Shown here: in pieces, positions 6,637 to 57,200 of the stretch
Layout: the number at the start of each line of letters is the position of its first letter
Numbering within the stretch: the first letter of the stretch is position 1
Source of the DNA: an uncultured Planctomycetia bacterium
Lineage (GTDB): Bacteria > Omnitrophota > Gorgyraeia > 2-02-FULL-51-18
Reading direction: 5' to 3'
DNA length: 64,000 nt
Assembly: GCA_964606485.1 (NCBI GenBank)
Contig: CAZSGP010000004.1
Location: forward strand, 166,376-230,375
The notes under the pieces: model-generated
Databases searched by the model: none
What the model was told of the DNA's origin: nothing
What the model saw: only the letters and a program-made list of their open reading frames with translations
Program-made: the position numbers and the translations under genes

Positions 6637-6637
6637 A

Positions 6638-7333: not shown

Positions 7334-7348
7334 AATCCTAGGTCTTTG

Positions 7349-7419: not shown

Positions 7420-7437
7420 GAGGTTTACTCCGCTCTC

Positions 7438-7520: not shown

Positions 7521-7537
7521 GGGTGGTTTCAAATTTT

Positions 7538-7595: not shown

Positions 7596-7598
7596 GAT

Positions 7599-7856
7599 AT
7601 GTTTACAGTCTACGTTTTAAAGAGTCTGAAGAATGGCCGGACTTATGTCGGATGTACTTCGAAACCAATAGAACAGAGATTGGTTTGGCATAGACAAGGC
7701 CTGACATCATGGACGCGGAATAATAATCCGTTCAAGTTGGTGCACTCAGAAGAATTTTTAGAGAAGAGTTTGGCGTTAAAGCGCGAGAGATATTTTAAGA
7801 CGGGACAAGGGCGCAAGACATTGGATATAATTTTGCGCTCGTCAGAAAAGTTATAG
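7599..7856 (+). CDS. small GIY-YIG nuclease superfamily protein (85 aa)
   Basis: MFTVYVLKSLKNGRTYVGCTS...RLVWHRQG...ERYFKTGQGRK matches the GIY-YIG/UPF0213-type motifs (YVL..GR.YVG, R...H, E..K); RBS gaagga 5 nt upstream; the track ORF 7308-7856 has a spurious N-terminal extension across two tRNA genes. Confidence 0.75.
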   Translation: MFTVYVLKSLKNGRTYVGCTSKPIEQRLVWHRQGLTSWTRNNNPFKLVHSEEFLEKSLALKRERYFKTGQGRKTLDIILRSSEKL

Positions 7857-17442: not shown

Positions 17443-17470
17443 TTTCCTGTTATCCTATCATCGGTATTTT

Positions 17471-19300: not shown

Positions 19301-19308
19301 AGGGGTTT

Positions 19309-33200: not shown

Positions 33201-36200
33201 CTCATTCGCTCTGACAGCCACCAAGCTTCTGTGATTGGCCAAGTGACTCAAGCTAACCGCAAGAGTTCAACTTTCTTCGCCGGCGTTCGCGGCGAAGAAA
33301 TCGCCGACTATTCTTATAGTTATGCAAATGATGGAAATACTGTTCGCAATGTGTCTGTCAATTTTTACGAAGGCGACGTGAGAGCAGCCAACGCATTGAT
33401 TAGCAATGCGCTCGCTCGGTCGGATTCTCATCAAGTAAGCAACATCGCTCAAATTTCAACGCTCAACCGGAAGAGCTCTACCTTCTTTTCAGGTACACGC
33501 GGCGAAGAAATCGCCGACTATTCCTATAGCTATGCACCCGACGGCACTACCGTTCGCAATGTGTCAGTGAATATTTACCAGGGCGATGTTCGTGCCACCA
33601 ACGCTTCGGTGAACGACGCGCTTCTTCGCTCCGACAGCCACCAGGCGACAGACATTGCACAGATTACAGATGCCAATCGCAAGACCTCAACATTCTTTAC
33701 CGGAACCCGCGGCGAAGAAATAGCCAACTACTCCTACGCTTATGGAAATGACGGCACCACCATCCGCACGGTATCGGTTAATTTTTACAATGGCAATCTT
33801 CGTGCTACCGATGCTTCCCCGGACGATGCCCTCGTCCGCTCCGACAGCCACCAAGCCACTGGCATTGGTCAGATTACTCAAGCAAACCGCAAGAGCTCGA
33901 CTTTCTTTGCGGGTGACCGTGGCGATGAGATCGCAGATTATTCTTATTCGTATGCTACAGATGGAATCACTGTCCGTAACGTCTCGGTGAATATTTATCA
34001 GGGCAATATTCGTGCAACGAATGCCTCAGCCGACGACGCACTGATTCGCTCAGACAGTCACGACGCTACCGATATGAGTGGAGCGACTCAAGCGAACCGC
34101 AGAAGCAGTACATTTTTTGCTGGTCTTCGCGGCGACGAGATTGCGGATTATTCCTACAGTTATGCTACGGATGGAACGACGGTGAACAGCGTCTCTATCA
34201 ATTTTTATCAAGGTGGAGTAAGGGCCGCGGCAGCTTCGGTCAATGACGCTCTGATCCGCTCCGACAGCCATCAAGCCACCGCGATTGGCCAAGTTACTCA
34301 GGGCAATCGCCGCAGCTCCACTTTCTTTACCGGAACGCGTGGAGATGAGATCGCCGATTATTCTTATAGTTATGCTACTGACGGCATCACCGTTCGCAAC
34401 GTCTCGATTAATTTTTATGAAGGCGATGTTCGGGCTATCAACGCTTCGGTGAACGACGCCCTCATCCGCTCCGACAGCCATGAAGCCACCGCCATTGGTC
34501 AAATCACCCAAGCTAACCGCCGCAGCTCCACCTTTTTTGTAGGTGTGCGCGGCGACGAGATTGCGGATTATTCCAAATCCTATGGCAATGACGGCGTCAC
34601 GGTTCGCGGAGTGTCAGTTAATTTTTACAGCGGAAATCAAAGAGCAGCAAAGGCGGCTTCCAATGACGCTCTCGTTCGCACGGACAGCCATCAAGTAACC
34701 GACATTTTACAAGTCGATCTATTAAACCGAAAAAACTCCACCTTCTTTGCCGGCATCCGCGGCGAAGAGATTGCGGACTATTCCACGAGTTACGCTCCTA
34801 ACGGCGTCACGATCCGTAATATCTCCATCAATTTTTACGAAGGCGATGTGCGAGCGGCCGATGCCTCGGTCAACAACGCGCTCATCCGTTCCGACTCACA
34901 CTTGGCAGATGCGATTGGTCAAGTCAATCAAGCTAATCGCCGCAGTTCTACATTTTTTAAAGGGGTGCGCGGCGAAGAGATTGCCGATATTTCTACTAAT
35001 TACGCACCCGACGGCATCACCGTTCGCAATGTGTCGATTAATATTTACGAAGGAGAACTTCGCGCTGAAAATGCATCCGTCAGTGACGCCTTAATTCGTT
35101 CGGATAGTTATGAAACGACGGCAGCAGGTGTGGTTTCTCTGTTTGTCACGGATCGCCGCAGTTCAACTTTCTTTACCGGAACCCGCGGCGAAGAGATTGC
35201 GAACTATTCTTATAGTTACGCCACCGACGGCGTCACGGTCCGTAACGTTTCGATTAATTTTTATCAAGGGGATGTGAGAGCGGTCGATGCCACGGTCAAC
35301 GACGCGCTTGTCCGTTCCGACAGCCACGAAACAACGGCCATTGGTGCGGTTACCGCTCAAAATAGAAGAAGCTCCACTTTCTTTGCGGGTGTGCGCGGTG
35401 AGGAAATTGCGGACTATTCTTATGGCTATGCTTCCGACGGCACGACCGTTCGCAATGTGTCGATTAATTTTTATCAAGGTTCTCTAAGAGCGGCGGTTGC
35501 CTCTGTCAATGATGCTCTGATTTATTCGGACAGCCACCAAGCGGATGGAATTTCAGCAGCGAACACTCAAAATCGAAAGAACACCACCTTTTTTGCCGGC
35601 CCTCGCGGCGAAGAAATCGCCGACTATTCCACGAGCTACGCCACGGATGGTACGACGGTTAAAAATATTTCCGTTAATTTCTATCAGGGCAATGTTCGCG
35701 CTTTGAATGCGGCTCCTAAAGATTCGCTCATTCGTTCGGACTCTCATGAGGCGGGGAGTCTTGGCGCGGTAAATATTCAAAACCGCACAAGCTCCACTTT
35801 TTTCGCCGGCATTCGCGGCGAAGAGATTGCCGATTATTCCACGAGCTACGCTCCGGACGGCACTACGATTCGCACGGTCTCCGTCAACATTTATCGAGGT
35901 GATCTGCGTGCCAAGGATGCCTCTGTGAGCGACGCGCTGATTCGTTCAGACAGTCATCAGACTACGGATATTCTTCAAATTTCAAATAGCAATCGCAAGA
36001 GTTCGACCTTTTTCGCCGGCTCTCGTGGCGAAGAAATCGCGGATTATTCCTACAGTTACGCTGCGAATGGCACCACGGTTCGCAATGTTTCAATCAACTT
36101 TTATCAAGGCGATCTGAGAGCGGCGGCGGCTTCGGTGAATGATGCGCTGATCCGCTCGGATAGCCATGAAACGTCGGCTATAGGCGCGGCTACTACTCAA

Positions 36201-39200
36201 AATAGAAGAAGCTCCACCTTTTTTGCCGGTGTCCGTGGAGAGGAAATTGCCGATTACTCCTATTCTTATGCCACCGACGGAATTACTATTCGCAACGTCT
36301 CGGTGAATATTTACGAGGGAGACTTGCGCGCGGAGGATGCTTCCACCACCACCACGCTTGTTCGCTCCGATAGCCATCAAACAGACGATATTCTAAAGGT
36401 TGCGACAACAAACCGCCGCAGCTCAACTTTTTTTGCGGGAGACCGGGGAAATGAAATTGCGGATTATTCCACTAGCTATGCTGCCAATGGAACGACGGTC
36501 CGCAATGTCTCCATTAATTTTTATCAAGGCGACCGGAGAGCCAATCTTGCTTCGTTAGACGACGCTTTGGTCCGCTCCGATTCGCACGAAGTTTCGGATA
36601 TTGCTCAGATTGCGGTTACGAATCGTAAAAGTTCCACTTTCTTTGCGGGTCTTCGCGGCGAAGAAATCGCCGATTATTCCTACAGTTATGCTAAAGATGG
36701 AGCCACGGTTAAAAATGTCTCCGTCAATTTTTACCAAGGGGATGTTCGCGCATCCAACGCTTCGGTCAACGACGTTCTTCTTCGCTCCGATAGTCACGAA
36801 GCAGGCTCTATCCAAGCTGTTGGAGTCCAAAACCGCAAAAGTTCCACATTCTTTACCGGAAACAGGGGAGACGAAATTGCAAACTACTCTACAAGTTTTG
36901 CCGCCGACGGCGTCACCGTTCGAAATATCTCCGTTAATTTTTATCAAGGCAATGTTCGATCCGCTCAAGCCACTTCGAACGATGCGCTGATCCGCTCCGA
37001 TTCGCACGAAGTTTCGGATATTGCTCAAATTACCCCAGCTAATCGCAAGAGCGCTACGTTTTTTGCAGGCAAGCGTGGTGAAGAGATTGCGGACTACTCT
37101 TATAGTTATGCTCCGGACGGAACGACGGTTCGCAATGTCTCAGTGAATATTTATCAAGGCGATCTCCGCGCCAAAGACGCTTCGGTGAACGACGCCCTCA
37201 TCCGCTCCGACAGCCATCAAGTCACTGACATTGGCCAAATCGCTCAAGCTAACCGTCGTAATTCCACGTTCTTTTTCGGTTCCCGCGGCGAAGAAATCGC
37301 CGACTACTCTTACGCTTATGGAAACGACGGAGTTATTGTTCGAAATGTAAGCGTAAATATCTATCAGGGGAATGTTCGCGCAATGAACGCATCTTCCAGT
37401 GACGCGCTCCTTCGCTCTGACTCTCACGAAGCTGGCGAAATTCTTCAAGTGAGTGACGCGAATCGTAAAAGTTCAACGTTCTTTACCGGCTCTCGCGGCG
37501 AAGAAATCGCCGACTATTCCTATGGATACGCCAAGGACGGCTTGACGGTCAAAAATGTTTCCGTGAACTTCTACCAAGGCGACAAGCGCGCCATTGATGC
37601 TTCCGTAAACGACGCGCTTCTTCGCTCCGACAGCCACCAAGCGAAGAGCTTAGGCGAAGCGATTCAAGCTAACCGCAAAAGCTCCACCTTCTTTGTGGGC
37701 GCTCGCGGCGAAGAAATCGCCGACACGAGTGTCAGTTACGCCAAAGACGGTGTTACAAGCCGCAGCATATCCATTAATTACTATCAAGGTGATATTCGTG
37801 CTGTGAATGCTTCGGTTAATGATGCTCTCGTACGTTCAGATAATTTTGAAGCATCCGGAACAGGGGCTATTTCACTACTTCTACAGAATCGCCGCAGTTC
37901 TACTTTCTTTACCGGCACCCGCGGTGAAGAAATCGCCGACTATTCCTATAGCTATGCACCCGACGGCACTACCGTTCGCAATGTGTCAGTGAATATTTAC
38001 CAGGGCGATGTTCGTGCCACCAACGCTTCGGTGAACGACGCGCTTCTTCGCTCCGACAGCCACCAGGCCACTGCCATTGGTCAAGTCACTCAAGCCAATC
38101 GCCGCAATTCCACCTTCTTCGTAGGAGGTCGCGGCGCAGAAATTTCGGATTATAGTGCTAGTTACGGAAGTGACGGGGTTACGATTCGTTCGATTGCACT
38201 CAATTTCTATGAAGGAAACCATCGCGCTATGGATGCGACATCGGATGATGCACTGGTTCGCTCGGACAACCACGAAGCAACCGCTATCGGACTCGTGTCA
38301 CAAGCCAATCGTCGCGGTAGCACCTATTTTGCCGGCGTCCGTGGCGAAGAAATCGCCGATTTTTCTTATGGTTACGGGTCGGATGGTAACACGGTCAAAA
38401 ATGTCTCGGTTAATTTTTACCAGGGCTCTTTGAGGGCGGCAGACGCTTCAGCGAATGATGCCCTAATTTACTCGGATTCTCACGAAGCAGCCGATATTTC
38501 TAGAGTTGGCACTTCGAATCGCAAAAGCTCCACTTTTTTTGCAGGGCCTCGCGGGGATGAAATCGCTGATTATTCGTATTCATATGATAAAGACGGCACC
38601 ACGGTAAAAAATGTTTCGATCAATTTTTATCAAGGCGATCTTCGAGCCCAAGACGCTTCGTCTAACGACGCGCTGATTCGTTCAGACAGTCACGAGACTA
38701 CTAGCGTTACTTCGGTCAACATGTCGAATCGCAAAAGCTCCACGTATTTCGCCGGTTCCCGCAGTCAGGAAATCGCTGACTATTCCTATAGCTATGCCAC
38801 TGACGGCACCACGGTAAAAAATGTTTCCATCAACTTCTACCAAGGCGACAAGCGCGCCATTGATGCTTCCGTAAACGACGCGCTCCTTCGCTCCGACAGC
38901 CATCAAACAACGGATTATACTTTGGCGGCGTTTTCCAACCGCCGTAGCTCCACTTTTTTTGCCGGAGACCGTGGAAATGAAATTGCAGATTATTCTTATA
39001 GCTACGCTGGCAATGGCACCACCGTTCGCAATGTCTCTATCAACTTCTACCTTGGAGGTTTGCGCGCGGTCGATGCCTCTTTTGACGAAGCCCTCATCCG
39101 CTCCGACAGCCACCAAGCGACGGATATTACCCAAATAACCCAAGCCACCCGCCGGAGTTCTACTTTCTTTAGGGGAAATCACGGCGACGAGATCGCCGAT

Positions 39201-42200
39201 TATTCTTATGCGTACGGCAATGATGGCACTACGGTTCGCAATGTGAGCGTCAATTATTACACCGGAAATCTTCGCGCCGCAAACGCTTCAGCGAACGATG
39301 CTTTGCTTCGTTCGGATTCGCATCAGGTCACTGACATTGCGCAGGTGGATGTGACTAATCGAAAATCCTCAACCTTTTTTGTGGGAGCAAAGGGCGACGA
39401 GATCGCCGATTACTCCGTAAGTTTTGCTAAGGATGGGACCACCGCTAAAAATGTTTCTCTTAATTTTTATGAAGGAAATGTTCGCGCTTCGAATGCTTCG
39501 GTGAATGACGCGCTCATTCGCTCTGATAGCTACGAAACGACAGCGACGGGAGTGGCATCACTTCTCATTACGAGCCGGCGCAGTTCAACCTTTTTTACCG
39601 GCACCCGTGGAGACGAAGTCGCGGATTATTCTTATTCGTATAACAATGACGGCGTGACGGTTCGAAATGTAAGCGTAAATTTCTATACGGGCAATGCTCG
39701 TGCGTCTAACGCGGCCGCGAGCGACGCACTGCTTCGCTCGGATAGCCATCAAACTACCGATATTTCACAAATTGCGACGACCAATCGAAAAAATTCGACA
39801 TTTTTTGCAGGTCCACGCGGGGAGGAAATCGCGGATTATTCTTACTCCTATGCTACAGACGGAAGCACGGTTAAAAATGTCTCAGTCAATTTTTACCAAG
39901 GTGATATTCGCGCCTCAAACGCTTCGGTGAACGACGCACTCGTCCGCTCCGACAGCCACCAAGCCACTGCTATTGGCCAAATCACTCAGGCCAATCGCCG
40001 CAATTCCACATTCTTTTTCGGTGTCCGCGGCGACGAAATCGCAGACTATTCGTATGGTTACGGTTCCGATGGCAGTTCTGTTCGCAATGTTTCAATAAAT
40101 TTTTATCAGGGGAATCTGAGGGCCGCTTTAGCTTCGTCTACGGATGCAATGGTTCACACGGATAGTCACCAAACCACTGACATTACGTTGGCGGCGCTCG
40201 CCAATCGCAAGAGCACGACGTTCTTTGCCGGCGCCCGCGGCGACGAAACCGCAGATTATTCTTATGCGTACGGAACCGACGGCACCACGGTCCGCAACGT
40301 TTCAGTCAATTTCTACGAAGGCGACGTCCGCGCATCCAACGCCTCTGCCAACGATGCCCTGCTCCGCTCGGACTCTCACCAAACAACAGATATTTCTCTA
40401 ATCACCACTACCAATCGCAAAAGCTCCAATTATTTTGTGGGCTCTCGCGGCGATGAAATTGCGGATTATGCCTACAGTTATGCGGCCGATGGTATCACGG
40501 TTAAAAATGTTTCTGTGAATTTCTACCAAGGAAATGTGAGAGCGGCAGTCGCCTCTGCCAATGCCGGCATGAACCGCAATGACGCCATGATCCGCTCCGA
40601 TAGTCACGAAACTACGGCGATCGCTTCGGTTTCTGTCGCCAATCGTCGCTCGTCTACCTTTTTTGCCGGACCCCGCAGTGAGGAAATCGCCGACTACTCT
40701 TATTCGTACGCCACCGACGGAGCCACTGTTAAAAACGTGTCCGTAAATTATTATCAGGGAAATGTGCGGGCGACCGTCGCATCCACCAATGATGCCTTAA
40801 TGCGTTCGGATTCGCACCAAGCGACGGATATCGCTCAGATTGCGCAGTTAAACCGAAAAAGCTCTACATTCTTTGCGGGCTCTCGCGGCGATGAGATTGC
40901 AGATTATTCCTACGCTTATGGAAATGATGGCGCCACCGTCAAAAATGTTTCCGTGAATTTCTACGAAGGTAATCTCCGCGCGACAAACGCTACGCCTAAT
41001 GACGCCATGATCCGTTCGGATTCTCACCAAACCACTGACATCGCTCAAATCGCCGTAGGAAACCGCCGCAGCTCGACCTTCTTCGTGGGCTCTCGCGGTG
41101 ATGAAATTGCGGATTACAGTTATGCATACGGCACTAACGGTACGACGGTACGGAATGTTTCCATTAATTTTTATACCGGAAACGTTCGCGCGGTAAATGC
41201 GTCTATAAACAATGCGATGGTCCGCACCGACAGTCATCAGACCGCTAGCCTTGCTCAAGTGGCCACGGCCAACCGCAGAAACTCAACCTTTTTTGTGGGT
41301 CCTCGCGGCGACGAGATCGCCGATTATTCCTATAGCTATGCCAAGGATGGCGCCACGGTTCGAAACGTTTCGGTGAACACTTATCAGGGCAATGTGAGAG
41401 CCAGCGTCGCTTCTTCGAATGACGCGCTTGTTCGCTCCGACAGCCATCAAACCACAAGCATTTCTCAGATTTCTACCGCGAACCGCCGCTCAACCACTTT
41501 CTTTACCGGTACGCGGGGTGACGAGCTTTCGGATTATTCGCATTCGTACGGAACAGATGGCACAACGGTAGTGGCCTCAACCCTATTTATCCGCGATGCG
41601 GCCAACGCATTGGTCGAATCGGTGAATTATTCGAACAAGATTACGAGGGATATTTCAAAAAATGTAGTGGATGCCCTTAATTCCGCAACCGCTCTGATTG
41701 AAACTAGCCGCGACTATTGGAAAGGCTCTCAGGGTTTTGAAGTCCGCGATCTCTCCGCTTTTTATTCTTACGATGATTCTGGAAATAAATCCATCGATCG
41801 CACGCAAATTTATTATTATTTCATCGATGACAATGACAATAATCAGATTGATGCCACCGATGGCAACGGGCAATTAGACGCAGGCGAGCCGTCAGGCAAG
41901 CGCGCACATGAAGTCACGCCCGACGATCTTGAAATGGGTTCGCGGACTTATGTCGGTGATCTGACGTATTTCCAAACCGTACGCACCATTTTAGGGCGCG
42001 ATACTCTGGGTCGCGTAACCAGTTACCGTGAAGAAGGCCGCGACCAGAGCGGAACATTCTTTTCAGAAAACCGTTCGGACATTACTTATATCGGCGACAC
42101 CGAAAATACGTTTAGCTTTAAAGCGACTCGCCGCGACGGGGAAATCACTTCCCATTTTGAAATGCGCAACATGGTTTACGATGAGCGCAACCGTTTGCGT

Positions 42201-45200
42201 TCTTCCGAGCGCGTGGACGTGGAACCGGCGACCGGTTCGGCAGATACAATGCTCGACCGCGTGATGGTGACAAAGACAATCAACGATTATGATTCGCAAC
42301 CGGGCTTTGTGGTGGTGACTTCGAACTCCTACGGAATTTCCGCGCAAGGAACGCTTTCAACTTCTAATTCGCAAACGAAATTCAAGCTCACCGGTGACGC
42401 GTTTACTCAGCCGTTATTTATTTCAGGTTCCAATACCGATTATCATTTAGTAGAAGATAACGGAAACGTCTTCAACCTAAGAAGCTTGCTCACCTCCGGA
42501 AGCCAAAACTCTCCAGCGCTCAGCGACGGGTTTGGATTGCTCGACGGCTACGACACAGCGGCTGCAAACGGCGGCAACTGGTTTGGATTTTTAACCGCTG
42601 ACCCCAATCCCGGCACACGCAATTTAACGCTGAACGGATTAACAATCCGCGTGGGCTCGGTGAGCGGGGTTGAAACTGTTTCTCAAACGTATAGCGCCGA
42701 TGGAAATCCGGATCGACAGGTCGAGCGCTTCTTCACAGGAACAGGTGCCGGAAAAATTGTGAACACCACTCGTGAAACGGTGAATCACTACGTCTCACCG
42801 CAACCGGCAAGCCGCCTGACGCAACTCGGGTTGCCATCTGGGTTTAAAATTATCGGTGATCGCATGACGACGGATTTTTATGATTCGAGCGCACAGGCCA
42901 AGTCCGTGAACACGGTGGTGTTTAAAACCACTGGCATTGATAATCCCGTTACGGCGCCGTCTCTCATGGAATCCAATCGCACGGTAACGTTCTTAACAGA
43001 CGGCACGACGCAATCCACCGAAAATCATACTTACACTTATAAAGCCTACGCCAATCGTGGCGCCGCTGTTTCCACCGACGCCGATTTAAAACCTTTTGAT
43101 GTGCACCATGAAATTACACAGGAAATCATCGAACGTTCACCGACGGGGGCTGTGTTTAACGCCGGTGACCAGGCTAATCAAAAACAAACTATAAATTACG
43201 CACGCGACGCGATTGGAAACTTAATGTTCACCGATCGCATGAATGACAACGACCCCTCGTCGCGCAGTGTGGAATTTGCAGGGATGGACGCGGATATTAT
43301 GAATGCCGCCTCGGAAATTTTAGACGCTCAGCATGTGCAGATCAGCGGCAATGGCGGCACGCAATCCATCACCGATGCTTTTGGAAATCGTATGGAGTAT
43401 GACGCGCAAGGCGCGCCAAATCAGTACATTGAAGCCAGCGGCAACGTACTCTTAACCGCCAATCTTTCTGCAGTGATGACGGACACCGATCCGCTGTTTC
43501 AAAATTACCGCTACACCATCACTGAAAATTTAGGAAATGGCCTCACGCGTTCGTTTTCGTACGGATTAAATAATCCTTCCGAAGCACAAGCGGTTTTCGA
43601 GCGTTACGCGCAGTTTGCGGCGAATTGGAAATGGAATAACGCAAGCACGTCGAGAGTTTATTCCGGAGCGGATACGAGTCTTTCGGGTTATTCGATTCAT
43701 TACAATCCCTCTGGTTTTCCGGATAAAATTCTCAATGGGTCCAATGCGATCAATACGGTTCAATTTCTTGCCGGAACCGGAACTGAAACTACGGCGTTTG
43801 CAACACCTCTATCCGCCACTCCCGCATCTTCGTTATCTCCCGGAGCATTTCGATTAGTGGTGAATAACAGAACTTTACTTTATGGAACGCTACCCATGGT
43901 GAGTGTGAATACGTCTAATAACGTCACAAGCCGAGTGGTCACTGACCCCGGTTTCGATTGGGAAGTGGAATTCATGATGATGGCGCAGTTCACGATTAAA
44001 AATTTTGGTTTTAGCACAGGCAGCTTTGCCGGAAATGGTGTGGGAGCCGCCGTGAGTCTTACGGGTGTAACGCAAAACGGAACAAATATTATTCAGGGTA
44101 CTTTCTTAAATTCTCAAAATCAATTACAGGTGACAGATTCACGAAGTGGGGAGACGTTTACGGTTTCAACGGCGAGTGTGAACGGACAAGCGGATCTTGC
44201 ACGGCAACTGGCCATGGCCGCACTTGGTTCCGGAACTCAAACCACGTGGAACGGTTCGCGGGCCACCGGCCGCGCTGGAAATATTTATTACGCTGCGGAT
44301 TTTGACACGGCTTCCGCAATTCCATCCAATCTCGCCACCACGATTTATCGCACGGACGCGTCGCGCACACAAAATCAGGGAGCTTTGTTTAATATTGAGC
44401 GCATCAACACTGCCGGTGCAGACCCCACCAAAACTTTGGTGAAACTCACGAGTCTCGCAGATCACACAGTCACCTACATTTCTTACGATCAATTTGGTCA
44501 GCGGGAAATGATTCTGCGGCTTAAAAATGGAACGAATATTTCCCAGTTTGTGGCAAATGGAGAGGCATCCCTCAGCCAAGCTTCGGTTCAGGATTCGCTT
44601 AAGACACTCGCAACTTCCAATACTTTCGAAAGTGTCGAGTTTAATCAAAATATTCGCCATGACAATGGATTTGCGCAAATCATTCGCCAAGGATTCCAGA
44701 GCGCGCTCGATTCCAACATCACGCGGCTCGATTCGAACGGCAATGCGCTGACGGGTGTCACGACTTATTCGGAAAACCAAATGTTTGGGCCGTCGGGTCG
44801 CATTCTGTCATCAAGCTCCACTCGTCATGAAGTCGGAAGTGGCGTGGATTTGACGACGGTAAACAAGAGTCAGTTTTCGTACGACGCGCAGGGCAATCTG
44901 ATGGCGCAAAGCGCCCGCGAAACGCAAAACGGAACCAATGTTGGAAATAATATGTCAAATCCTTCGAACCCGACTTTTGCCATCAACAACGTTTCAAAAA
45001 TAACGGTGCTCAAAGGCGTGAAGCTCGACAGTCTCGGCCAACGCGTGACCATGGATTTTTCATCGCGTCAATCCGGACAAGGAATGCTTTCTTCGGGGCA
45101 GATGGATCCGCGTTCTTTTGGAGGCTCATTCGATCATGATCAGACCCTGATCCAAACGCTCGGAACAGTGACTCAGCCGAATGGTTTGGACGCATTTGGA

Positions 45201-48200
45201 AGACTCGTTTCGTCCACCACTCAAGAGAGAGAATTTTTTGGAGATCGCAATGGCTCGCGTACTGTGGGCGAGACGAAGACTGAAATGAATGGAATCGCTT
45301 ACGATACACTCAATCAAATGGCGGCCTTCCAAAAAACGGTGGCCAAAAACGGTCAGTGGGTGGACATTGTGCTCGACGCGGCGGGGAGTTTGTTGCCGGT
45401 AATGAATTTCTTAAGCAATGTCGAGCAAACCGATCAAGTTTCAACACCGGATTCGCGCGGAAGAATATCCACACGCACCACGATGACGACTAGAGACAAC
45501 GCGATTTTAATTCCAAATCGCGATTGGAACAATTCCACGGCTGTAGCGGGTGGTGGAGATTTGCTGGACTCGACTCACGGCGTGATGATTGGCGGAAAAC
45601 ATTATTTCGTATTTGCTTACGGCGGCGGTAGTTTGGAATTGTACAGCGGCGAAGGAATTCGCACGATAGCGCCTCGTCAACTTTCAGGAGCTTTGGCCTT
45701 GGGTCAGCATCAGACCATTCAATTGGCCGATGCGGGTATTTATTACGATGTTTACAACCAGGGGGATTATTTTGTTCTAACTCCCAAGGGCAATTTCGGT
45801 TCGCAAGCAGAAGCCAATGCCGCCGCCGCTTTGCGTTACACAACCACCACTGAAACGCGCGCCGGACCTTTGGCGCTCAGCGCGAACAGCACGTTTAATT
45901 CTCAGTACGCCGTGACTCCCAGCGGCGGAATTTCATACGACAATTTCTCCCGCCTCCAAGGTTTTGCCGATACAACAACCGTTACTCTTTTTGGAAATTT
46001 TGCGACCTACAACGACCACGCTTTTTCAGCCAATCACGCACAAATGACGTATGCGCATTTGTCGGGCTCCATGACTCAGCCGCACTGGACGAATCCTTTC
46101 TGGGCCGATGGAGCTACCGGTGAAACGGCAAGCAGCGGTCCGCCGTCTGTGACGCGCATTCATTCGACGCAGGACATTCGCTATGACGCGGCCGGACGCC
46201 AGCTCAGTCTCACGGACATCAATATTGAAAACGGATCGCGTCTTGTGAATGGGACTTCGCAAACCTACCGCACCGAATCGGTGACGCGCCGCACCGATAT
46301 GCGTTATGACTCGCAGGGCAGACTCGATTCTTACCGCGACACGCGAAGCTCCAACACTGACAAGTCCATCACCGTGACGGATCGTACCAGCACGCAGTAC
46401 GACTCGAGTGGTCAAGTCTCAGGATTTGAAGAAGTAAACCACACGACTGGATTTGATGCCGCCGGGCGACTTTTAAATCCCGCCGACACGACGAAGACGA
46501 GTGCGCTCGCCATGAATTTCACGAGCACGGTCCGCCAGTCGAATCTGCGCTACGACACGCTCGGTCGTCTCATCAGCTCGCTTCGCACGGTGGCAAGCCA
46601 AGGCCAAATGGCGTTTTCGGAATTTACGCGCTACATCGTTTATGACTTAAACTCCAACGCCGTGGACACGATTACAAGTTCCACACAGCTTGTGGCCGTG
46701 CCTGCTTCCGATCCTCAAGCCTACGCACAATTCTTAAGCACGCTTCCTAACGGCAGCGGTCAGCAGTACACCGATGGTATATTTGCGGCGGACAATGGCC
46801 AGCAAGGATATTTTGGCGCGCTCACTGCGGCACCGGTCATAACCGGCAGTGTGGCTACGCTGTCATTCAACGTTAATCTTTACCAGGGCGGAACAGCTTC
46901 AATTACGAACCGCCGGTTTTCCACGCTTTACCGCGCCGTCGGAACCAATCGCACTCAGTCTATCTTTGATACCTTCGGAAATGCCGTAAAGCAGATAACG
47001 TCAGTCCAGCAAGTGGTGCAAACTAGCGCCGGATTCGCAGGGTGTGACGGCTACGGTCAATTGGTGTATCACGCCCCCACTTATGCCACGACGTATCAGA
47101 CGGTGAGCATTATTCAGACCACGTTTAATTCGCTGAACCAAATTGTCACGCGAGTCATTCAACAATTTTCGAAAGCATTTAATAATTTTGTGAAGCTCGT
47201 GGTCGACATCATTCATCAGTCCGGTTTTGTGTACGACAGCTACAACCGCATTGTGAATTATTCGACGTATCAATTCATCAACACCCCCGGCACGCGCGGG
47301 ACCAATGTCTGGACACGGGTCACCCAAAGCTACAACGCGTTTAATCAGCAAATTTTCGAAAGCACGAGTGCTACGCAAATTACAAAGAGTAAAAAAGGAA
47401 GTTTCCGAATTACGCAGACGACGAACACTCAGACCAACACCGCGACCGTGTTTAATTCGTACGGTCAAGTTGCAAACACTCTTTCGAGAGAAGTGTTCCG
47501 GCAGGAATTTATAAAATCGAAGGGGACGGGGTTTGCCAAGCTTTATTCCAACAGCACGTTCGCGGCCGTTGTTTCGATTGTTGCCGTTCTGGCTGTTGTT
47601 GTGTCGTATGGCGCCGCATCCGCCGCATTGGGAGCTCTTTCAGCGCTCTCGAGCGCTTCCGGAGCTAGCGCCGTCGGCATAACAGCCGGTGTGGGAACTT
47701 CTGCTGGGAGCTCAGCGGCTGCTTCGGGTACTTTTGCAGGGTCCTCCTCTTTTGCAGCCGGTCAAAGCATCAACCCCTTAATGACGTATTATTCCTCATT
47801 CACATACTTTTCTATTTTTGATGATCAAAGAACCTCGATTGCTCAGCTCATAGAACTTGCTCCGCGAGATGGCGATGAGATGAGCCGTTTCGGACAAATT
47901 TGGAATTATACGATTATTGCGGCGACGGTCATTTCAGGTGTTGTGCTGAGTGTGGTCACTTTCGGCGCAGGAACGCCGTTGGCTATAGTGCTTAACGCGT
48001 TGGTTGCAGCTGCTGTGACAGCGGTGATTCAATCCGCCAACGCCGTGGTTCAAACTGAAGTTATGGGGCAATCCTCTAAAGGGGTTTGGGGTAAGGTGGC
48101 GGTGCAGGTTGCTACCAGTTTTGCTGCCGCATTTTTCGCGAGCGCTATTCAGTGGGTTGGGCTGGGAGCAAACGTGGCGGGGGGCGAAGGAATTGTAGCG

Positions 48201-51200
48201 AGCATGATTAATGAAGGGGCCACTGTCGCAGCGACGACCCTTGTAGGCGGTACAGCGAATTACCTTTATTTAAAACACGAGGGAGAAAGCAATCAAAAGA
48301 TTTTGAGGCAACTGAGCACGGGTTTCGCCATTTCGCTCGCGGTTACGGTTTTGATGGCGGGTCTGACAGGAGCGTTGGGTGGAGACCTCGCTAAAAAAGA
48401 CGTGTTACAGCCGGGTCTTTATATTGATAATAATAAACTTTCCGCTGTAGGTGGCCAATTTTATACCCGGCTTGGGAACGCCCTTTTTACCAATGAGATG
48501 TTTTTAAAGAGCATTGGCATGAATGAAGATTTTGGACGGGCCTTTTCGGCGGCCACCGAAGCTGTGATGGCCGTTGCCAATAGCCTAATTCCAAACGAAA
48601 AAGACCCAACTAGCGAAGACTGGTCTAAAGCTCTCGCGAACGCTCCATCTGGCGCATTCGATTTCGCAGCTCAATTTATGAAAGGATTTCTCGCGCGTTT
48701 AGCCGGAAGTTTCGCTGATAAAATCGTTGAAAATAATACCAAGCTGATCATTGGCGGTATTTTTAGCATTGCGAGTGCCGTGACCCAATTCGCGACGGTG
48801 TTTTTGAATATGATCGAACAGATGAGTAAGCTCATCGCATCCGACGGTAAAAATCAAGACGCTGATAAGACCGGTCGAGGAAACGAGCAAGAGAAAAATG
48901 CCGGTAAGAAAGCGCTTGATCCCTCTTCGACTGTGTTAAAGGCGTTTGAGGAAGCCGCTCAGTTCATTGAAGACTTTTTCGGGAATATTCCGGTGATCAC
49001 TCCAATCTTGCAGACCGTGATGATGGCCGCGGGAGCGGCGGCGGCCACCTTTACGAGTGCGGTCATGGCGGCTGTCGCAGTAGGACAGAAATTAGTAGAT
49101 ACGGCTATCTCCTTTGGCAGTGTCTTTGTATTTGCGGCAAAGGCCATTTTTGGTGATAAAGAGAAGAAGGAAGCCAACTGGAAAGAAGCGGGCGATGCCC
49201 TTCAAGGCGTCTTCAGTGGAATTTTAAATACGGTGATCGCCGCTATTCAGTTCCCGTTCAAAGTATTGAGTGATGCCATCACCGGGCTTGCCGAGACACT
49301 GGTGAAATTTATTTCGATTTTCGGAAAAGATTTTGCCAAAGATCTAAAAATTAATATTAATAAAATCGCAGGCGGCGCGGTGACCACTTTAACCGTTCTT
49401 CTCATCAATACTTCTCAGAATTCAGATGATGCCAACGACAACGCGCAGAGCGGTCTCAATAAACTCCAGTCACTTTCTAAGAATCTGGCGGACGATTTTA
49501 ATTCCTCCGATGGTTCACATGGCGCAGAGACGGTTGAAGCCATCCAAATCCGTGCGGGCAATGTGACTAAAATTTTAGGAGCGCTTCGCGACAAAGGTTG
49601 GCTGAGAGCCGATACAGTTTCATCAGCTTTGGATGTTTTGAACGCGCTCAATAAAATCAATTACGCCAAACTGAGCGTAGAAAATGCTATCAAACTTTCC
49701 GGAATACTAATTCAGACGCGGCTTGAGATGTATGGCATGGCGCTCGCTGCTGGAATTATGACGCCAGGTCTTTTAGGGGACTTTATCCAAAGCACGCTTG
49801 AACAGATGGGTGCGCTGTTTAGCACGGATAGAATGGATTGGGAGACTTATAATAAATTAAAGGGCGAGATCGTCAATTATATCCAAACGGCCGATCCTAA
49901 AATGGTTGCCGAGCAAAAAGGCCGCATCAATCAATTCTTCAATAACGCAGTAGCCGGCTTGGTCGCACTGCAAAAAAGTGGTAAACAAATGAAGACGCTT
50001 TCATTGGGCACCGATGAATCGGAATTAGAAGACGCTATTTTCAACACCGAAGGGATGGCCGCCCTTGTTTTAAAATCAGACCTTTCGGCAAACGGTGATT
50101 TTATTAAAAAATTTGCGGAAACGCTCAAAGATCCCAACAACAAGCTTGATGCCAAAGTTTTATTATCCGCCGTATTGTCGACGCTAGGGCCCGCACGGGA
50201 GATGTTGAAATTGGCACTGATCGATGGAAATATTTCTCAGGAAGAGTCGCTTGAAATCATCAACATGGTGGCCGATGGGTTAAATGGACTCGCTCCTTTA
50301 TTTGAAAATAAAAATGAAGCCATTCAAAAAGCGGCTGAAACCGTTCTCGGCCAGGCTAATGCACTGCTTGAAAAAGTAAATCCCGAATATCTCAAAACCA
50401 CTCAAGGCCAAAGACTGCTTACGGTAATTGCCACTGTGGAAAGAGCCTCTGGCAAGGCGGTGCTGACAAGCGAGGCATCGAGCGCCGAATCTCTACGCCC
50501 GACAGCCATGAGCCTGAGCGAAAAATTCTTAAAGAACCACTCAGAAATGAAGTCCATTCTCGCTATTTCAAGAGGCCGCTTTGAAACCGTCGAAGTAAAA
50601 GATCAAACATTGAAAGACGCGCGCGGCAACGTGATCAAGGACTCTGAAGGAAATGAGAAAAAATTCAGCGGCATTGCTTTAAAAGACCGCAAAACCGGCG
50701 AACTTCTACGCGATAACAACGGAAATTTAAAAATGGCCGTGCGTTCTATTGCCGGTGACAGTTTTGTGGTTGAAGTTAGAACCGCTCAAGGCGCCGAAGG
50801 TCGTTCTGGAGCAGGTTCCTCGAACGACGACCTGAGCGAGCTGGCGTCCAAAGGTTTCCGGCTAACGAAAATCGGCGAAGAAAACGGAGTGGTCCGTTAC
50901 CAGGCTTTTGCATTGGTCGATGGCGCGCAAATGCTTCATGACGGCGCTCAGTTCAATCCTTTTACTGCCGGCTCTGATCTGGAAGTCCAAAGTGGAATAA
51001 TGGTGAACGGAGATTTGATCGAATCAACCACGTCGACTGATTATGTGCACATTCAAATCGGAAAAAATGGTCGCGCTGAAATTTTGAACTCAGGATTTAT
51101 CACCGTGGCTACGGAGTTTAATGGCCAGCAAGCAAATCTGCGTATTTCATACGAAAAAGGCGGAAAAATTAGCGGCGGCCAAGCGTTGATTTTTGGCGAT

Positions 51201-54200
51201 GACAAACCGGTAGATCTAACGGCCATTGCCGGCGGTAAAGAATTTGTCATTGCGCGCGGATCCACACCGCTTCTATCTCTCGATAACCGCGAAACCACGT
51301 TTATGGATTCACTGGGTCTGTCGGTGACCCGTTCGCTGCATTCGGATTTGGTCGGATTCACCCGCGAAGGAAAGTCACTTGAACTTTTGAGCAGCAAAGG
51401 TGAAGTAGAAACGCGTTTAGGATTCCAGGTCGGAGGAGAGGGAAGCTCCTCTGCAGAAGTTCCGGTGTTTCGTCCCGAGCTCGGACTCGGGAATTATAAC
51501 GTTTATGTCCAAGGTAAAAATTATTACGAAGTTTCGTTAAATAAAGATTCCAGAATGCTCGCTGTTGGCGGAGAGCTCAAACCTACCGCGCTCGGCGCGG
51601 GCGGACAGGGTAGCCCTATAAATATTTTTGCTAAAAACGCTGCAGGTAGTCTTGTTCCGGTCGGCCATTCTGAAGTAGATGTGCAAGCCAACGGATTCCC
51701 GGTTGGCGGTGAAAACTTCACCCGCGTGGCGCAGCGCATTCAGTTCAATGACGACGTCGACGACGCAACCAAATCGCTTTGCCGCGACACGCTGAAAATG
51801 GATTCGGAAATATTGGTGAGTTCAAAAGGCGTTTCCACTTTCCGCGTGGATCGCAATTCGCAGGGTGCGATTTCGATGCTCAGTTATTTTGGAGAGGTTA
51901 GTGCCGATACCATGGCCTCATCCGCGGCGGGATTAGCTGATATGGGCATTCGTCTAAAAGGTGTCAACGCCGATGGCCAAACCATGATTTCGCAGATTGA
52001 CGAAAAAGGTTATGCGGGCACAATGACGATTTTAAATTCGAAATTTATTTCCGAAAATCCTGGCGCGCCGATTGACGCTAAAATTCTCATGCCCGATGGA
52101 ACATCCAAAAATATTTCAATCAACTCTCAGACGCTGATTCGCTCGACGGGTGCTGTGAATTATATTCCCGACAACGACGACGGTAGGCCGTTTGAATACC
52201 GCACGGGCGATGTATTTTCAAGTTACGAGGTTGCGGGAGTAAATGCTGATCAAGCAAAAGTGGTGAAGAGCAGTTTGGCAACGCTCGGCTTGAGGCAGAC
52301 TGAAAACACAGCCGCGATTGTCCGCACCGGCGCACCAGACGAAACTGGAAAAGTTTCGGACATTATCGTTGGCACCGGCCGCTTCGACGCGCAGGGAAAT
52401 CTTTCTTGGGTATTGCCGGCGGGTCAACAAGACCGCATTGAAAAAATTAGTGCAAATGGAGCCGCTGTTAGTTTTATTGCGGGAGCCAATGAAGTTCGTG
52501 AAATAGACGCGGCCACCCATACGGATCGGATAGATTTTGAAATGAACGCAGTGACGGCGCAAAAAGTCACCGAAGCGGATTTCAACGAAGCTAAACAAAT
52601 GGCCATTCAATTCGGCTTACGCGCACCGCCGGACGATATCGCCGATGGAGCGCCACGAGTTTTATTCTCTGCCAATGGCGCTCAAATCACCGCCACTTAT
52701 CACGCTTCCTTTAATGAATTAGACGGTCGACCCACCGGTTTCATGCTCGATAAGGGCCAAGATGGCCAAGTGGCGAAGTTCTTGGGTCTCACGGAATACA
52801 CATTCCCATTTTCAACTAGCGCAAACACTCTGCTTCCGGCCGAACAAAACGAACTGACTTCTATTTTGAGTCTCGCGCACGACGCGATGACCGGGAAAAA
52901 CCAAAACTTAAAACTTGTTTATAACGACGATCACACGGCTCTGACCATTGAAAACAAGCGTGAAAATGGTTTGACCGTGTTCACGACACTGGATAGTCAA
53001 AATCCACAACCCGTTTATGAATTATCGGCGGGCGGTGAGAAGCATACCTTAAGCCGCGAAACAGATGGCTTCCTTTATATAACAGCCCAGGACGGCCAGC
53101 GGATGGTGCTGGATCTCGGAAAGCAGATTATTCCAAACCAAGCCCGTGAAAAAATCACGGTCGACAATCTCCGTGTGGATGGCATGACGCTGGACGGCGC
53201 ATTCTTTGGCGCGTATACGGTGAGAGGCGACAAGAACCGCGTGGTTCAAATCTTGGGTGGAGCAGGCGGCGCAGCTGGCACGTCTCCGCAGGGATTGGCG
53301 TCTAAAGGAGAAGTATTCAATAGCGACGTCGAAGATCAAAACGGAAACCTTCACACGGCTCTAATCGGAATTAACGGCACGTTCGCTTATCTTGGCAATG
53401 AAGTGAAGTTTAAAGAGCCCGGCAGTGAACTGCTCGTTAGATATAACGACGCCGGTGTGGAAGGACTGTTCTCCGACAATCGCCGCGTTTACGAAGGCAC
53501 TGTCGGATTCAGTCAATCGGGTATGGATTTTTCTGTGGATACGATTGCCGATATTATTCGTGAGGGAGACACGATTATTTTCGGCTCGTACGTGAATTCT
53601 GACGGCGTCAAAGGTTTTGCTTTGGAGCCAGGACAGGAAAAAGCGATAGCTAGTTTCTTGAATATTACGGAAGAAAAATTAAGCGAAAAATTAAAAGAAC
53701 AACCCGCAACGCTCGCCGGCCGCGTGGCCATGGCGCAAACCCTTGGCAATGTCCAACTGCTTCACGCCGCTGTGGGAATGAAAGAAAAAATTGGCGTTAA
53801 AGATATTCCGCTCGTTTCCGATGAAGCTGCGCTCAACACCGCCATTGAAAATTTGGATCACAAAGCGCTAGCCGGAATGGTGGGAAATATTTCTGCAATC
53901 AAGGCCATATCTGCGCGTCAAAACGATGTGCTTGGGTTTGGAGAATTTAAAATCACCGTTGCTCAACTAGCGAGCGACCCTGCTCTTGCCAAAGATGCAG
54001 ATTTCCTGAGTTTTGCTTCGAATGTGTTGGCGCTTTCCGACAACCAAGTGAAGGTGGTCAAAGTTGGCGGCGTTGACCGAAGCGTGGTGCCGCAATCAGC
54101 ATGGACGCTTGCAGAAATGGTGCGTACTGCTGATCTCGAAGGCGTTACTGCTGCCGTAAGCTACGCAAGTCTTGTGCTTGCCGCCGCGGGTCATCAAAAA

Positions 54201-57200
54201 TTTATTGAGTCCCAGGGTCTTGGTGGAATGAATGCAACTTTGAATGGACTGCTCGATCTTGCCCGATTTGGACTCATTGGCGGCGACTACGCCTTTATGA
54301 GTGCCGCCGCTCAAACGATTCAAGCGGGCCTTGGTGCTTTGGATCAAAAACAAAACGAAGACGCGACTCGCAGCCGGTTTAACGCTCTTGAAGATCCGAA
54401 GATGAAATTGAATGCCTCAGTCTATTCGTTTCATCTAGATGAAGCGCTCGCCGCGTTCGAGAAGGGAGATCTTGCCGCATTTTCTCAAAAATTCCAGATC
54501 GCCCAACAAGGCCTTGGGCTTTTAGCGGCGATCGAAAATAAACAAGTCTCTATTGCCGCATTCGATCAAGCGGGCCTGCACGACATGACGATTAATTTTG
54601 GATATTTGTTGGATGACGCAAAAGTTGCCTACGGTCAGGGAAATTTTGAAAGTTTTGCCAAAAAATTTGAAATGATTCAAGGCGGGTTTGCTCTGCTCGA
54701 GATGAAGAAAAACGAAGCCAAAGTGAACGGGCGTTTTGACACGCAAGGTCTCTCAAGCGCTAAAGACGTTTACAACCGCGAAACCGCGCTGGCCATCAAG
54801 GCCTATGCGCAAGATGATGAAGAGGCATTTGCAAATCACTTTGGAAAATCTCAAGCAGGTTTAAGCTTGCTGGCTATTGCCGAAGCCCGCGTTCAAGCTC
54901 CGGACAATTTGAAGAAGGCAGGTCTCGGAGCTTTAGAGTCAGCGTGGAAAAAATCATTTAGTAGCGCTTCCGACGCGTACGGCAAGCCGGACGCCACTGA
55001 ATTTGAAAAAGCCATGGGTGAACTCAACGTGATTGGATTGGGTGTTGCGGCAGTGCTCACCAAAAAAGTTCCTGCAGCGACCGCTCAAAAAGCAGTCGAA
55101 GATTATTTGAATACCGGTCTTACCAAAGAAGTCCGCGGGGCGGCACTGAATTTCTTGCAAGATGTGACACAAGCCTCTCATCAGGTGAGTGTCGATAGCG
55201 TAACAGGATCTGTTTCAGTCTTAGCACGTTCCGACGCCAATAAATCTGTCAGCCGTCAGTATGATTCGAGCGGCAAGCGTCAGGGCTCATCGGTGATTTT
55301 CACACCCGATCCCGCTACCACCGAAAAAGGCATCACACTTTCATTCGATAAAGAGGACAATCTCGTCGGCCCAATCGAGCCGCACTCGCTCACGCTTTAT
55401 GGACGCTCTGTCACCATCGAAAGCCGTGAAAGTACTGTAAACGGAGCCAAACAATTCCGCGCCGTTCTTCACATGGACGTCACGAGTGAAAATCCGCTGG
55501 AAACAAATTTGAAGAATCTTCCTGCGGGCATGGATTCTCTTAAATTCACAGGCCCTATGGCGCTCGTCGTCAACGCAAACGGCAGTTTTACCGTCGAAAG
55601 CAAATTCATCACCGCTAAGATTGAAAATGGGGAGTACCAGCTCTGCCAAACGGCCATTGTGAACTGGCAGGGCGATTCGCTCTCTATTGAACGCGGCCGC
55701 ATGAATGTCACCGACGGCGCAACGTTTGAAATTGGAGCGACCGGCTTAGCTCATTACACCGACCCGACTGGCGGCAGCGGCCCTACATCCAACGCCAAAC
55801 TTCCGGACAAATCGATTCACGCATCTCAATCAGCCGATGGAACTGTCACTTTAAGCAAGGGCGCGATTGAAATTCGAAATAATGCGGTGGTGGTCACCGA
55901 AGGCCAGCAGTTCATTGTGGATGGACTGATTAAAAATTTCAAAATTGGAAATTCGCTTATTGGCGATAAGGGCGAGCAGGGTTCTTTGATCTACACTTCG
56001 GTCAACGGAGTTGCCCGTTTGGTTCAGTGGGGTCAAGTCATGGGAGCTCTGACTGGTCAGGAAAATGATCTGTTAGCGGCTGTCGAAAAAGTGGCGTCAG
56101 AACTATCTTCTCCAGTGGGACGCATCTATCACGCTAGCGTAGACAAACAAGCCAGTGCTCTCAAAGAAAAAATTTCAGGACTTAAAGAGTCGCTGAAAAA
56201 TCAGAGTGCTGAAACTAGAAAAACTTTGGTTATTCAGTTCCTACGAGGAGTAGAAAACATTGAAATTTCGGCATACACCAATTTTTTTGAAACCAGCGCC
56301 GGTTCCCGTGAAATCAAGGAGGGTGCCAGCACTGTCGGCGTGCGCATTTTGGATATTTTAAATTATGACAAGAAAGATTCTAAAATTTGGGGCTATGAGG
56401 CAACTCATGCCCTGGATAAAGATAAAAATTTCGAAGCTTCGCTAAGAAAAACCGGGGATGTTGTTTCTGAGGAGACAAAAATATTTTTAAGCGTGGCATT
56501 GGGGAATGCGGATGAGGCTGATAAGTTTCTCAATACCGATTCTGCTTCGAAAGTTAAAATTTTTGAAAAGATGGCCGATCAAGCTTGGAATGATGCCAAT
56601 AAAATGGTTGAGCGCTTTATGGGTCATCCTAAAGAGAGTGCTTATCATGCGGCCTACGAATATGCGCTAGAGTTACGAGCGGATGCGGGAGATTTCAAAA
56701 ACGCGATTGGAAAGTATAAATCTGGTGAATCATCTCTATTTGAATTGATGCATCAAGCATCATCTTTAAAAGGTGAGGGCGATGCTTCGATTATTGGCGC
56801 TGGGGACAAGCTGAGATTAGAAAAGAAAGAGAAGACCTTTGCGGCTCTGCTGGGAGACGCTTTACCTATTCCACATACCAATGCTGAAATTGCTGGTATT
56901 TTTAGTAAGGCTTTTCGAACGGGTAACCTTCAGGGCATTGAAACGGCACTTACCTTGCAAGGAATTTGGAGCACTTCAGGGCAATTGGTCGAGCTGATTA
57001 AAAAAGGAGGAACTAAAGAACAGAAAGCCGCTATTGCGGCTAATCGATGGAGAGACGCTGATATTGGGGCCGATGAGACAGTTGCTTCTGAGACTGCTGT
57101 GTTGCGTGACAAATTTTCTGCACATAAAGATAAGAATTTTAATCGAACCGATACGATTCAAACTGTTTACGAAGTGTTAGTGGCCGACCCTTCTTTATAT

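Follow-up and report, generated by a model that had tools for sequence, protein, structure and literature searches.

Does a cluster of Tyr-Asp (YD) motifs in a giant bacterial protein mark a toxin container of the Rhs type, or a repeat with some other task? The question is raised by a 64,000-nucleotide (nt) stretch of DNA from an uncultured bacterium placed by GTDB in Omnitrophota (contig CAZSGP010000004.1 of assembly GCA_964606485.1, positions 166,376 to 230,375; this whole stretch is called the window here). On its plus strand a giant open reading frame (ORF) occupies 27243..64000. The frame is open from 27207, the first ATG lies at 27243 and no stop occurs before the window end. The ORF thus runs off the 3′ end of the window with a product longer than 12,252 amino acids (aa), which bears out the term giant protein used in the original prediction, a note made from the letters and ORF translations of this DNA. 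That note had also pointed to four YD motifs within about 140 aa, read them as a possibly divergent YD region, and tied the protein to polymorphic-toxin and contact-dependent systems. We favor, with a probability of roughly 0.6, the reading in which a divergent, long-strand version of the YD (Rhs-type) hairpin repeat makes up the cluster as a short array and serves as a structural scaffold in a giant surface protein. A closed Rhs cocoon packaging a toxin is probably not what these repeats build.

The YD-like cluster and its homologues

The four motifs RYDAAGRQL, RYDSQGRLD, QYDSSGQVS and RYDTLGRLI are all present in the frame of the giant protein, as listed in the original prediction; the translation of 46101-46700 contains, in order, QDIRYDAAGRQLSL, TDMRYDSQGRLDSY, TSTQYDSSGQVSGFEEVNHTTGFDAAGRLLNP and SNLRYDTLGRLISS. 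The [RQ]YDxxG[RQ] motifs span nt 46179-46575, with YD at nt 46182, 46305, 46398 and 46551, corresponding to aa 6314, 6355, 6386 and 6437 when the ATG at 27243 is taken as codon 1. A fifth motif, GFDAAGRLL, is found between the third and the fourth, and the spacings within the cluster are 41, 31, 18 and 33 aa with this FD turn included. Two further YD-like motifs, placed by the original prediction in the N-terminal region at ~28.93 and 29.22-29.27 kb, are present as well, with starts close to nt 28926 (FSYSPSGKLLDTVSYD) and nt 29223 (NYQFEYDAAHNLASVYF). The YD-like features, with the evidence behind each, are as follows.

46110..46712, plus strand: YD-like cluster, aa 6290-6490 (AlphaFold2 model; PF05593 and TIGR01643 scores)
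46143..46226, plus strand: repeat unit 1, PSVTRIHSTQDIRYDAAGRQLSLTDINI, aa 6301-6328 (hidden Markov model (HMM) of the unit, 6.8 bits)
46269..46352, plus strand: repeat unit 2, RTESVTRRTDMRYDSQGRLDSYRDTRSS, aa 6343-6370 (unit HMM, 17.7 bits)
46368..46451, plus strand: repeat unit 3, ITVTDRTSTQYDSSGQVSGFEEVNHTTG, aa 6376-6403, followed by the short FDAAGRLL turn (unit HMM, 24.5 bits)
46521..46592, plus strand: repeat unit 4, TSTVRQSNLRYDTLGRLISSLRTV, aa 6427-6450 (unit HMM, 8.2 bits)
46713..47540, plus strand: weaker continuation of the array, with IFDTFGNAV, CDGYGQLV, TFNSLNQIV, VYDSYNRIV, YNAFNQQIF and VFNSYGQVA (sequence; low-confidence predicted hairpins)
43362..43445, plus strand: isolated YD-like unit with MEYDAQGAPNQ, aa ~5386 (RHS_repeat, 17.1 bits, sub-threshold)
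44868..44906, plus strand: YD-like unit FSYDAQGNLMAQS, aa ~5880 (RHS_repeat, 20.2-20.3 bits)
29202..29270, plus strand: N-terminal YD-like motif INYQFEYDAAHNLASVYF (RHS_repeat, 22.7 bits in the tile 29043-29645, stretch 54-76)

The simplest explanation of such motifs would be chance: Y-D dipeptides falling together in a beta-rich sequence rich in S, T and G, with no repeat family behind them. The protein is indeed compositionally biased, and the plain YD dipeptide is not enriched in its 12,252 aa (30 observed, 27.5 expected). The longer pattern behaves differently, with 12 instances of YDxxG (2.3 expected), 8 of YDxxG[RQKN] (0.42 expected) and 3 of [RQKT]YDxxG[RQ][LVI] (0.015 expected). Four YDxxG within 140 aa were not reached in any of 2000 shuffles, in which the maximum of three was itself attained three times. 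No DNA-level repeat was found among the cluster units; the units are therefore old, with conservation at the protein level only.

Homologues argue further against chance. An exhaustive HMMER search with aa 5740-6780 of the giant against 1.84 billion representatives matched six proteins in total. Neither aa 5350-6780 nor alignment A1 had a match in word-indexed searches, which we attribute to the limits of the word index, since the six relatives were found exhaustively. P0001 (MBI4397317.1, a partial sequence labelled 'Elusimicrobia bacterium') was matched over 16 stretches with an E value of 1.3e-27. P0005 was matched over 13 stretches (E 1e-5); it is a fragment and falls into one 90% cluster with P0007, a complete protein of 2795 aa. 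All of these stretches map on aa 6239-6479 of the giant, i.e., on the YD-like cluster, and P0003, P0004 and P0006 match aa 5626-6041. The sixth protein, P0002, is described with the membrane topology below.

P0001 and P0005/P0007 are long arrays of one unit in 40-47 copies, with median spacings of 32 and 35 aa and a consensus close to L..TT.T.R(S/T)...Y(D/N)..G(Q/R)(L/V)..Y.E....SD.P. A unit HMM built from P0001 and P0007 only, with the giant excluded, was run over the whole giant with matches of at least 5 bits reported. It gave five matches, namely aa 6011-6033 and exactly the four units of the cluster, and none in 20 block-shuffled versions of the protein. MAFFT aligns the turns of the giant in register with the turns of its relatives. 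The cluster motifs are true repeats, homologous to a wider family. Considering these results together with the confident structure model and the negative reversed tiles given below, we judge the chance explanation refuted.

Among the closest counterparts of the cluster are P0001, P0007 and the proteins at loci L007 and L008, uncharacterised proteins with YD/YN repeats of 30-35 aa from groundwater metagenome-assembled genomes (MAGs), which are its direct homologues and have the unit consensus and the in-register alignment in common with it. They carry 40-47 regular units, whereas the giant has 5-6 good ones and degenerate ones, and their label, Elusimicrobia, denotes another phylum than that of the giant's host. 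P0007 has an N-terminal membrane anchor, and its C-terminal end consists of repeats of ~120 aa where the giant has a membrane block. These repeats, four or five in number at aa ~2360-2795 (locus L001, 10001-18388), follow the pattern …NPxGSGYELxDxSGNxYxWxGxxFV…GYxxNxDGTYSD…; they match no Pfam family and have no equivalent in the window.

The cluster was modelled with AlphaFold2 as aa 6290-6490, using an 18-row in-register alignment (A3) that includes 17 non-overlapping in-phase windows from the relatives. The model has a mean predicted local distance difference test score (pLDDT) of 86.1 and a predicted template modelling score (pTM) of 0.79, and shows eleven beta strands, each 7-18 residues long, which short turns connect into an antiparallel meander. 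YDAAG, YDSQG, YDSSG, FDAAG, YDTLG and YDLNS are each located in a predicted hairpin turn. The modelled strands end at an aromatic residue (…DIRY, …TDMRY, …TSTQY, …TTGF, …SNLRY, …YIVY), the five-residue turn is D-x-x-G-(R/Q), and the following strand begins with L, V or Q. This predicted arrangement matches that of YD repeats, but with strands ~1.5 times longer. A larger job covering aa 6237-6770 (534 aa, 10 rows) gave a poor model, with a pLDDT of 43.6 overall and 60-79 in its best part, the cluster; over the weaker continuation at 46713..47540 it predicts strands throughout at a pLDDT of 24-66. At that overall confidence its Foldseek result was unusable and was discarded.

Possible kinship with canonical YD/RHS repeats

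The canonical YD/RHS repeats (PF05593, TIGR01643) of Rhs proteins, TcB-TcC and teneurins resemble the cluster in the aromatic-Asp-x-x-Gly-(Arg/Gln)-(Leu/Val) signature at a predicted hairpin turn. When the cluster was cut out as 201 aa, it scored above the curated cut-offs of both profiles: 23.5 bits against 22 for PF05593 (RHS_repeat; E 7.4e-5) and 17.5 bits against 15.8 for TIGR01643 (E 0.0045). For an unbiased view the giant was divided into 121 tiles of 201 aa. The seven tiles that matched RHS_repeat at E ≤ 0.01 fall at four sites, one being the N-terminal motif (29.2 kb), two lying near nt 43.4 kb and nt 44.9 kb, and the last being the cluster itself. The tile next to that of the N-terminal motif (28743-29345) scored 17.6 bits, and a 500-aa piece containing the motif 15.5 bits. 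None of the ten re-tested tiles matched RHS_repeat when reversed. In the windows taken from the family, RHS_repeat is the most frequent Pfam family, with a match at E ≤ 1 in 8 of 18.

Profile-profile comparison and structure search point in the same direction. An unanchored hhalign alignment of the family against the YD region of E. coli RhsA had a score of 32 (P = 0.0016), and three further alignments scored 22-27, with reversed and shuffled controls at 10-18. A second hhalign comparison, of unit stacks anchored by a regular expression, gave a probability of 90.9% and was rejected because both stacks had been selected by the same motif. When the cluster model was searched with Foldseek among 350,542 chains, teneurin-4 ranked first and TcdB2-TccC3 (TcB-TcC) fourth; these ranks are not significant.

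A number of observations weigh against the reading as a YD repeat acting as scaffold. The PF05593 score fades with the length of the query, from 19 bits (333 aa) to 7.6 bits (534 aa) and to none (~4900 aa). None of the single repeats passes PF05593 or TIGR01643 alone, TIGR01643 has no match on the 333-aa piece, and Pfam finds no RHS match on whole P0001, P0005 or P0007. The hhalign probability against RhsA is just 16%. Among solved Rhs, Tc and teneurin chains no match was obtained at E ≤ 10 with the giant segment, with P0001 (phmmer) or with the A3 family profile, and the sole match of P0007 to solved structures is an unrelated cyclophilin (E 0.27); in the control, E. coli RhsA alone finds 18 solved Rhs, Tc and teneurin chains, down to E 1e-109. 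Foldseek returned no chain at E ≤ 0.001 for the cluster model. The period of the family is ~32 aa, versus 20-21 aa in the runs of E. coli RhsA, and its strands of 10-18 residues are likewise unlike those of the canonical repeats, so that convergence on the YDxxG turn is possible. The 534-aa model being poor, the overall shape may be that of a ribbon, a solenoid or a shell; the topology set out below comes from a hydropathy scan only, and the 3′ end of the gene lies beyond the window.

Convergence would mean that an independent hairpin family reached the Tyr-Asp-x-x-Gly turn for structural reasons, with no Rhs or teneurin ancestry and the same scaffold function. The longer period and strands, the failure to find solved chains, the silence of Pfam on the three whole relatives and the low hhalign probability all favor it, as does the restriction of the Pfam match to ~13 profile positions around the YDxxGRL turn. 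It accounts less well for two independently curated YD profiles exceeding their cut-offs on the cluster, for RHS_repeat topping the family windows and recurring at four sites of the giant, for four alternative alignments to RhsA that all lie above every control, and for YD-shell proteins heading the Foldseek list. We consider convergence a serious alternative, although the less probable explanation. The evidence for regarding the cluster as a divergent long-hairpin relative of the YD repeats is weak but consistent, and descent from a common ancestor with the canonical repeats is what we infer from it. The cluster is not a regular PF05593 member under either reading. The expectation of a divergent YD region thus survives in that true repeats with the hairpin-turn signature and borderline profile passes were found; the ~32-aa period and the absence of a detected solved homologue set it apart from a canonical one. 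The profile search proposed in the original prediction gives borderline positives with the 201-aa cluster and a few tiles, and fails with single repeats and longer pieces.

Predicted membrane topology, the question of toxin delivery, and neighbouring genes

The position of the cluster in the protein bears on its function. Other features of the window are given below.

27303..27362, plus strand: N-terminal hydrophobic segment, aa 21-40, MQNESMKLKPYKSRWSWQFKSVSVLIIGTFLLHDLAWGVDS, preceded by a K/R-rich start (hydropathy scan)
47541..49151, plus strand: first membrane-helix-like block of ~6 segments, aa 6767-7303, directly after the array (hydropathy scan)
57369..58529, plus strand: second membrane-helix-like block, aa 10043-10429 (hydropathy scan)
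44838..47525, plus strand: module collinear with P0002 (three aligned blocks)
29967..41558, plus strand: array of a 70-aa repeat, 55 head-to-tail copies, aa 909-4772 (self-BLAST; phmmer unit count and spacing; TRF)
17369..27058, plus strand: RND-type efflux operon with an OEP outer-membrane factor, an HlyD-like adaptor and two ACR_tran paralogues (Pfam)

From its K/R-rich N-terminus and the hydrophobic segment at aa 21-40, the giant continues through a beta-rich stretch into the 70-aa repeats, then through non-repetitive beta-rich sequence (aa 4800-6766) to the first membrane-helix-like block. This is followed by a helix-rich stretch, further beta-rich sequence and the second hydrophobic block. 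In the hydropathy scan ~11 distinct hydrophobic segments form the two blocks within the window, in addition to the N-terminal one. If both blocks prove real, several membrane passes of the chain would follow, as reported for other Omnitrophota giants. The stretch after the first block (aa ~7300-7780) is helix-rich and free of Cys, and the protein as a whole has three Cys in 12,252 residues (0.02%; the figure for nine proteins encoded upstream is 0.43%). Low values are also seen for Pro (1.6%) and Trp (0.5%), and high ones for Ala, Ser, Gly and Thr. Pfam and NCBIfam scans of whole pieces found no credible family in the giant ORF apart from the borderline YD/RHS signals and repeat artefacts. The segment at aa 21-40 is read as a probable Sec signal peptide or signal anchor; together with the later membrane block, it would place aa ~40-6766, and with them the cluster, outside the cytoplasm.

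The same order of array and membrane block is seen in P0002, a complete protein of 1865 aa (GCA_004196255.1, contig SDBU01021829.1) with an N-terminal Laminin_G_3 domain, a YD-like array and a long multi-helix hydrophobic block. Its aa 199-478, 907-1049 and 1134-1228 are collinear with aa 5866-6130, 6343-6484 and 6659-6761 of the giant; the collinearity includes the cluster, which is matched with 69.8 bits (i-E 4.5e-23). P0002 differs from the giant in standing alone and in its lectin-like N-terminal domain, undetected in the giant, and the membrane and C-terminal parts of the two proteins are barely alignable. Judged by this alignment, the giant seems to contain, at aa ~5740-7300, a module that is found elsewhere as a membrane protein of its own.

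The question of toxin delivery can now be addressed. In a true Rhs- or teneurin-type container, the YD-like region would be part of a shell, with the core, the cleavage site and the toxin further downstream. The YD-type signature above curated cut-offs is compatible with this, and so is the presence of teneurin-4 and TcB-TcC among the top Foldseek matches. Teneurins are membrane-anchored proteins with a YD shell on the outside, so a membrane anchor as such fits a container too, and the 3′ end of the gene, lying outside the window, would be the place for core and toxin. Yet the Rhs-core motif DPxGL, which the original prediction proposed to look for, is missing: the 12,252 residues visible here contain neither DPxG[LWIVM] nor PxxxxDPxG, and the complete homologues P0002 and P0007 likewise have neither DPxGL nor PxxxxDPxG. 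At the Pfam threshold no toxin domain is found in these 12,252 aa, and neither an Rhs core nor a toxin domain in P0002 or P0007. A membrane-helix block lies within ~300 aa of the cluster, in the place of a core or toxin. YD shells, as in the structures of Rhs and TcB-TcC, need several hundred residues of YD hairpins, and here ~200 aa alone fold confidently in the model as YD-like hairpins. T6SS, PAAR, VgrG, TcA/TcB and CdiB genes are lacking in the 27 kb upstream. We therefore regard a toxin container as improbable. The tie to polymorphic-toxin and contact-dependent systems made in the original prediction is unsupported, the giant and P0002 agreeing instead in a membrane block after the array.

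Because there is no DPxGL, because the membrane block follows directly, and because P0002 and P0007 lack an Rhs core and a toxin domain, we prefer a scaffold to a cocoon. The array has 5-6 well-formed units at aa 6300-6490, about six weaker ones extend it to aa 6770, and isolated units occur further upstream. In the proposed arrangement, each unit of ~32 aa runs along a strand up to an aromatic residue, turns tightly at D-x-x-G and returns along a strand with a hydrophobic residue at its start, and the units may stack into a wide, rigid antiparallel sheet beside the membrane anchor. The array would thus sit in the presumed extracytoplasmic part of the chain, between the N-terminal signal anchor and the multi-helix membrane block. 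Its most likely role would be structural, giving a giant protein of the cell surface a scaffold, or part of a stalk, made of beta sheet.

The 70-aa array, roughly one third of the visible giant, contains copies that are 65-73% identical, with a period of 70 aa (rarely 72 or 76) and, in TRF, a DNA period of 210 bp at ~67% identity. The consensus is like …RRSSTFFxGxRGDEIADYSYSYxxDGTTVRNVSVNFYQGNVRAxNASxxDAxVRSDSHQTTDIAQI…. A DYSYSYDKDGTTV motif suggested a YD repeat here as well; this was rejected, the hhalign probability being 0.2% both against the YD-like units and against the RhsA units, and the 70-aa repeat is taken as a separate family. Matches on 30000-41700 to NCBIfam TIGR03035 'arylformamidase' (172.6 bits, E 1e-50, with a best stretch of just 36 aa) and to the enzyme domain EpmC of Pfam (31 bits, cut-off 23.8) were also rejected. 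They are artefacts, because many tiny matches to the 70-aa repeat had been summed, and they could lead automatic annotation to mislabel the giant. The array breaks short-read assemblies, and public copies of the giant gene are consequently mostly truncated. An independent assembly of the locus, a Logan contig of 20,650 bp from SRR12487046 (L004), ends at aa 2097, inside these repeats.

Upstream of the giant, 27 kb of DNA encode MnmG, ThrRS, PheS/PheT and an MgsA-type (RarA-like) AAA+ ATPase, followed by the RND operon (Pfam). The MnmG is 100% identical to P0008, encoded on a 366-kb contig, and its next best matches, at 75-79% identity, bear the names Omnitrophica or Omnitrophota, which places the host in this phylum. 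The end of this operon is separated from the ATG of the giant by 185 bp on the same strand. Stop and start codons overlap by 4 bp between the adaptor gene (19309-20508) and the first RND gene (20505-23708) and again between the latter and the second RND gene (23705-27058), an arrangement that fits translational coupling within an operon. Both loci have two RND (ACR_tran) paralogues beside the repeat protein, upstream of the giant in the one case and downstream of P0007 (L001 18414-24530) in the other. The paralogues of the two loci are reciprocal best matches, with 38% and 40% identity versus 25-31% across the pair. The adjacency could reflect a conserved linkage or just shared synteny.

Giant proteins of Omnitrophota and a new repeat family

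Proteins that range from 10,000 to more than 100,000 residues are a known feature of Omnitrophota (10.1101/2023.11.21.568195; 10.64898/2026.06.07.730766). AlphaFold models of such giants show Rhs-like tubules of antiparallel beta-helix (West-Roberts et al. 2023, bioRxiv 10.1101/2023.11.21.568195). The tubes are ~1500 aa long with regular outer alpha helices, and the description is a structural one with no YD sequence motif (10.1101/2023.11.21.568195); the authors also liken antiparallel beta sheets to RHS repeat proteins (10.1101/2023.11.21.568195). The present protein resembles these giants in belonging to the same phylum, in exceeding 10,000 aa, in its many predicted membrane helices and in its large unannotated beta-rich stretches. 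It differs from the tubules in that the confident model covers just a helix-free hairpin meander of 200 aa. The 70-aa repeat may be a helix-decorated beta tubule of the kind described. In a more recent preprint 15% of long proteins are 'Pfam-dark' (10.64898/2026.06.07.730766), and the visible part of the giant resembles these. In family scans of its first 12,252 aa, nothing was found of the archaeovorin set (SecA_DEAD, glycosyltransferase, peptidase C39/S8, TPR) or of Dockerin and TSP3 repeats.

Omnitrophota giants and their Rhs-like predicted beta structures have thus been described already. What is new here is a sequence-defined family of ~32-aa YD-like repeats that explains one beta-rich stretch and is marginally visible to curated YD profiles. 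The family is common to the giant and to large groundwater-MAG proteins labelled Elusimicrobia. A bolder and distinctly tentative proposal is that it represents an undescribed branch of the YD superfamily, which together with the following membrane block (the P0002-type module) would form a self-contained, membrane-anchored beta-sheet device common to Omnitrophota giants and groundwater Elusimicrobia surface proteins. The RND pair, the adaptor and the outer-membrane factor would then be a dedicated export or assembly partner and not a drug pump.

Annotation is scarce for Omnitrophota giants, and the proposal that they act in host attack or attachment rests largely on structure predictions. A toxin container of the Rhs type does not follow from the YD-type motif in this protein, and on present evidence the giant is not to be counted as a polymorphic toxin. 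That paired RND genes recur beside these repeat proteins gives a clue, open to testing, to the route by which such proteins come to the surface. With its consensus, period, homologues and hairpin model, the ~32-aa family could become a profile for annotating other giant or large surface proteins.

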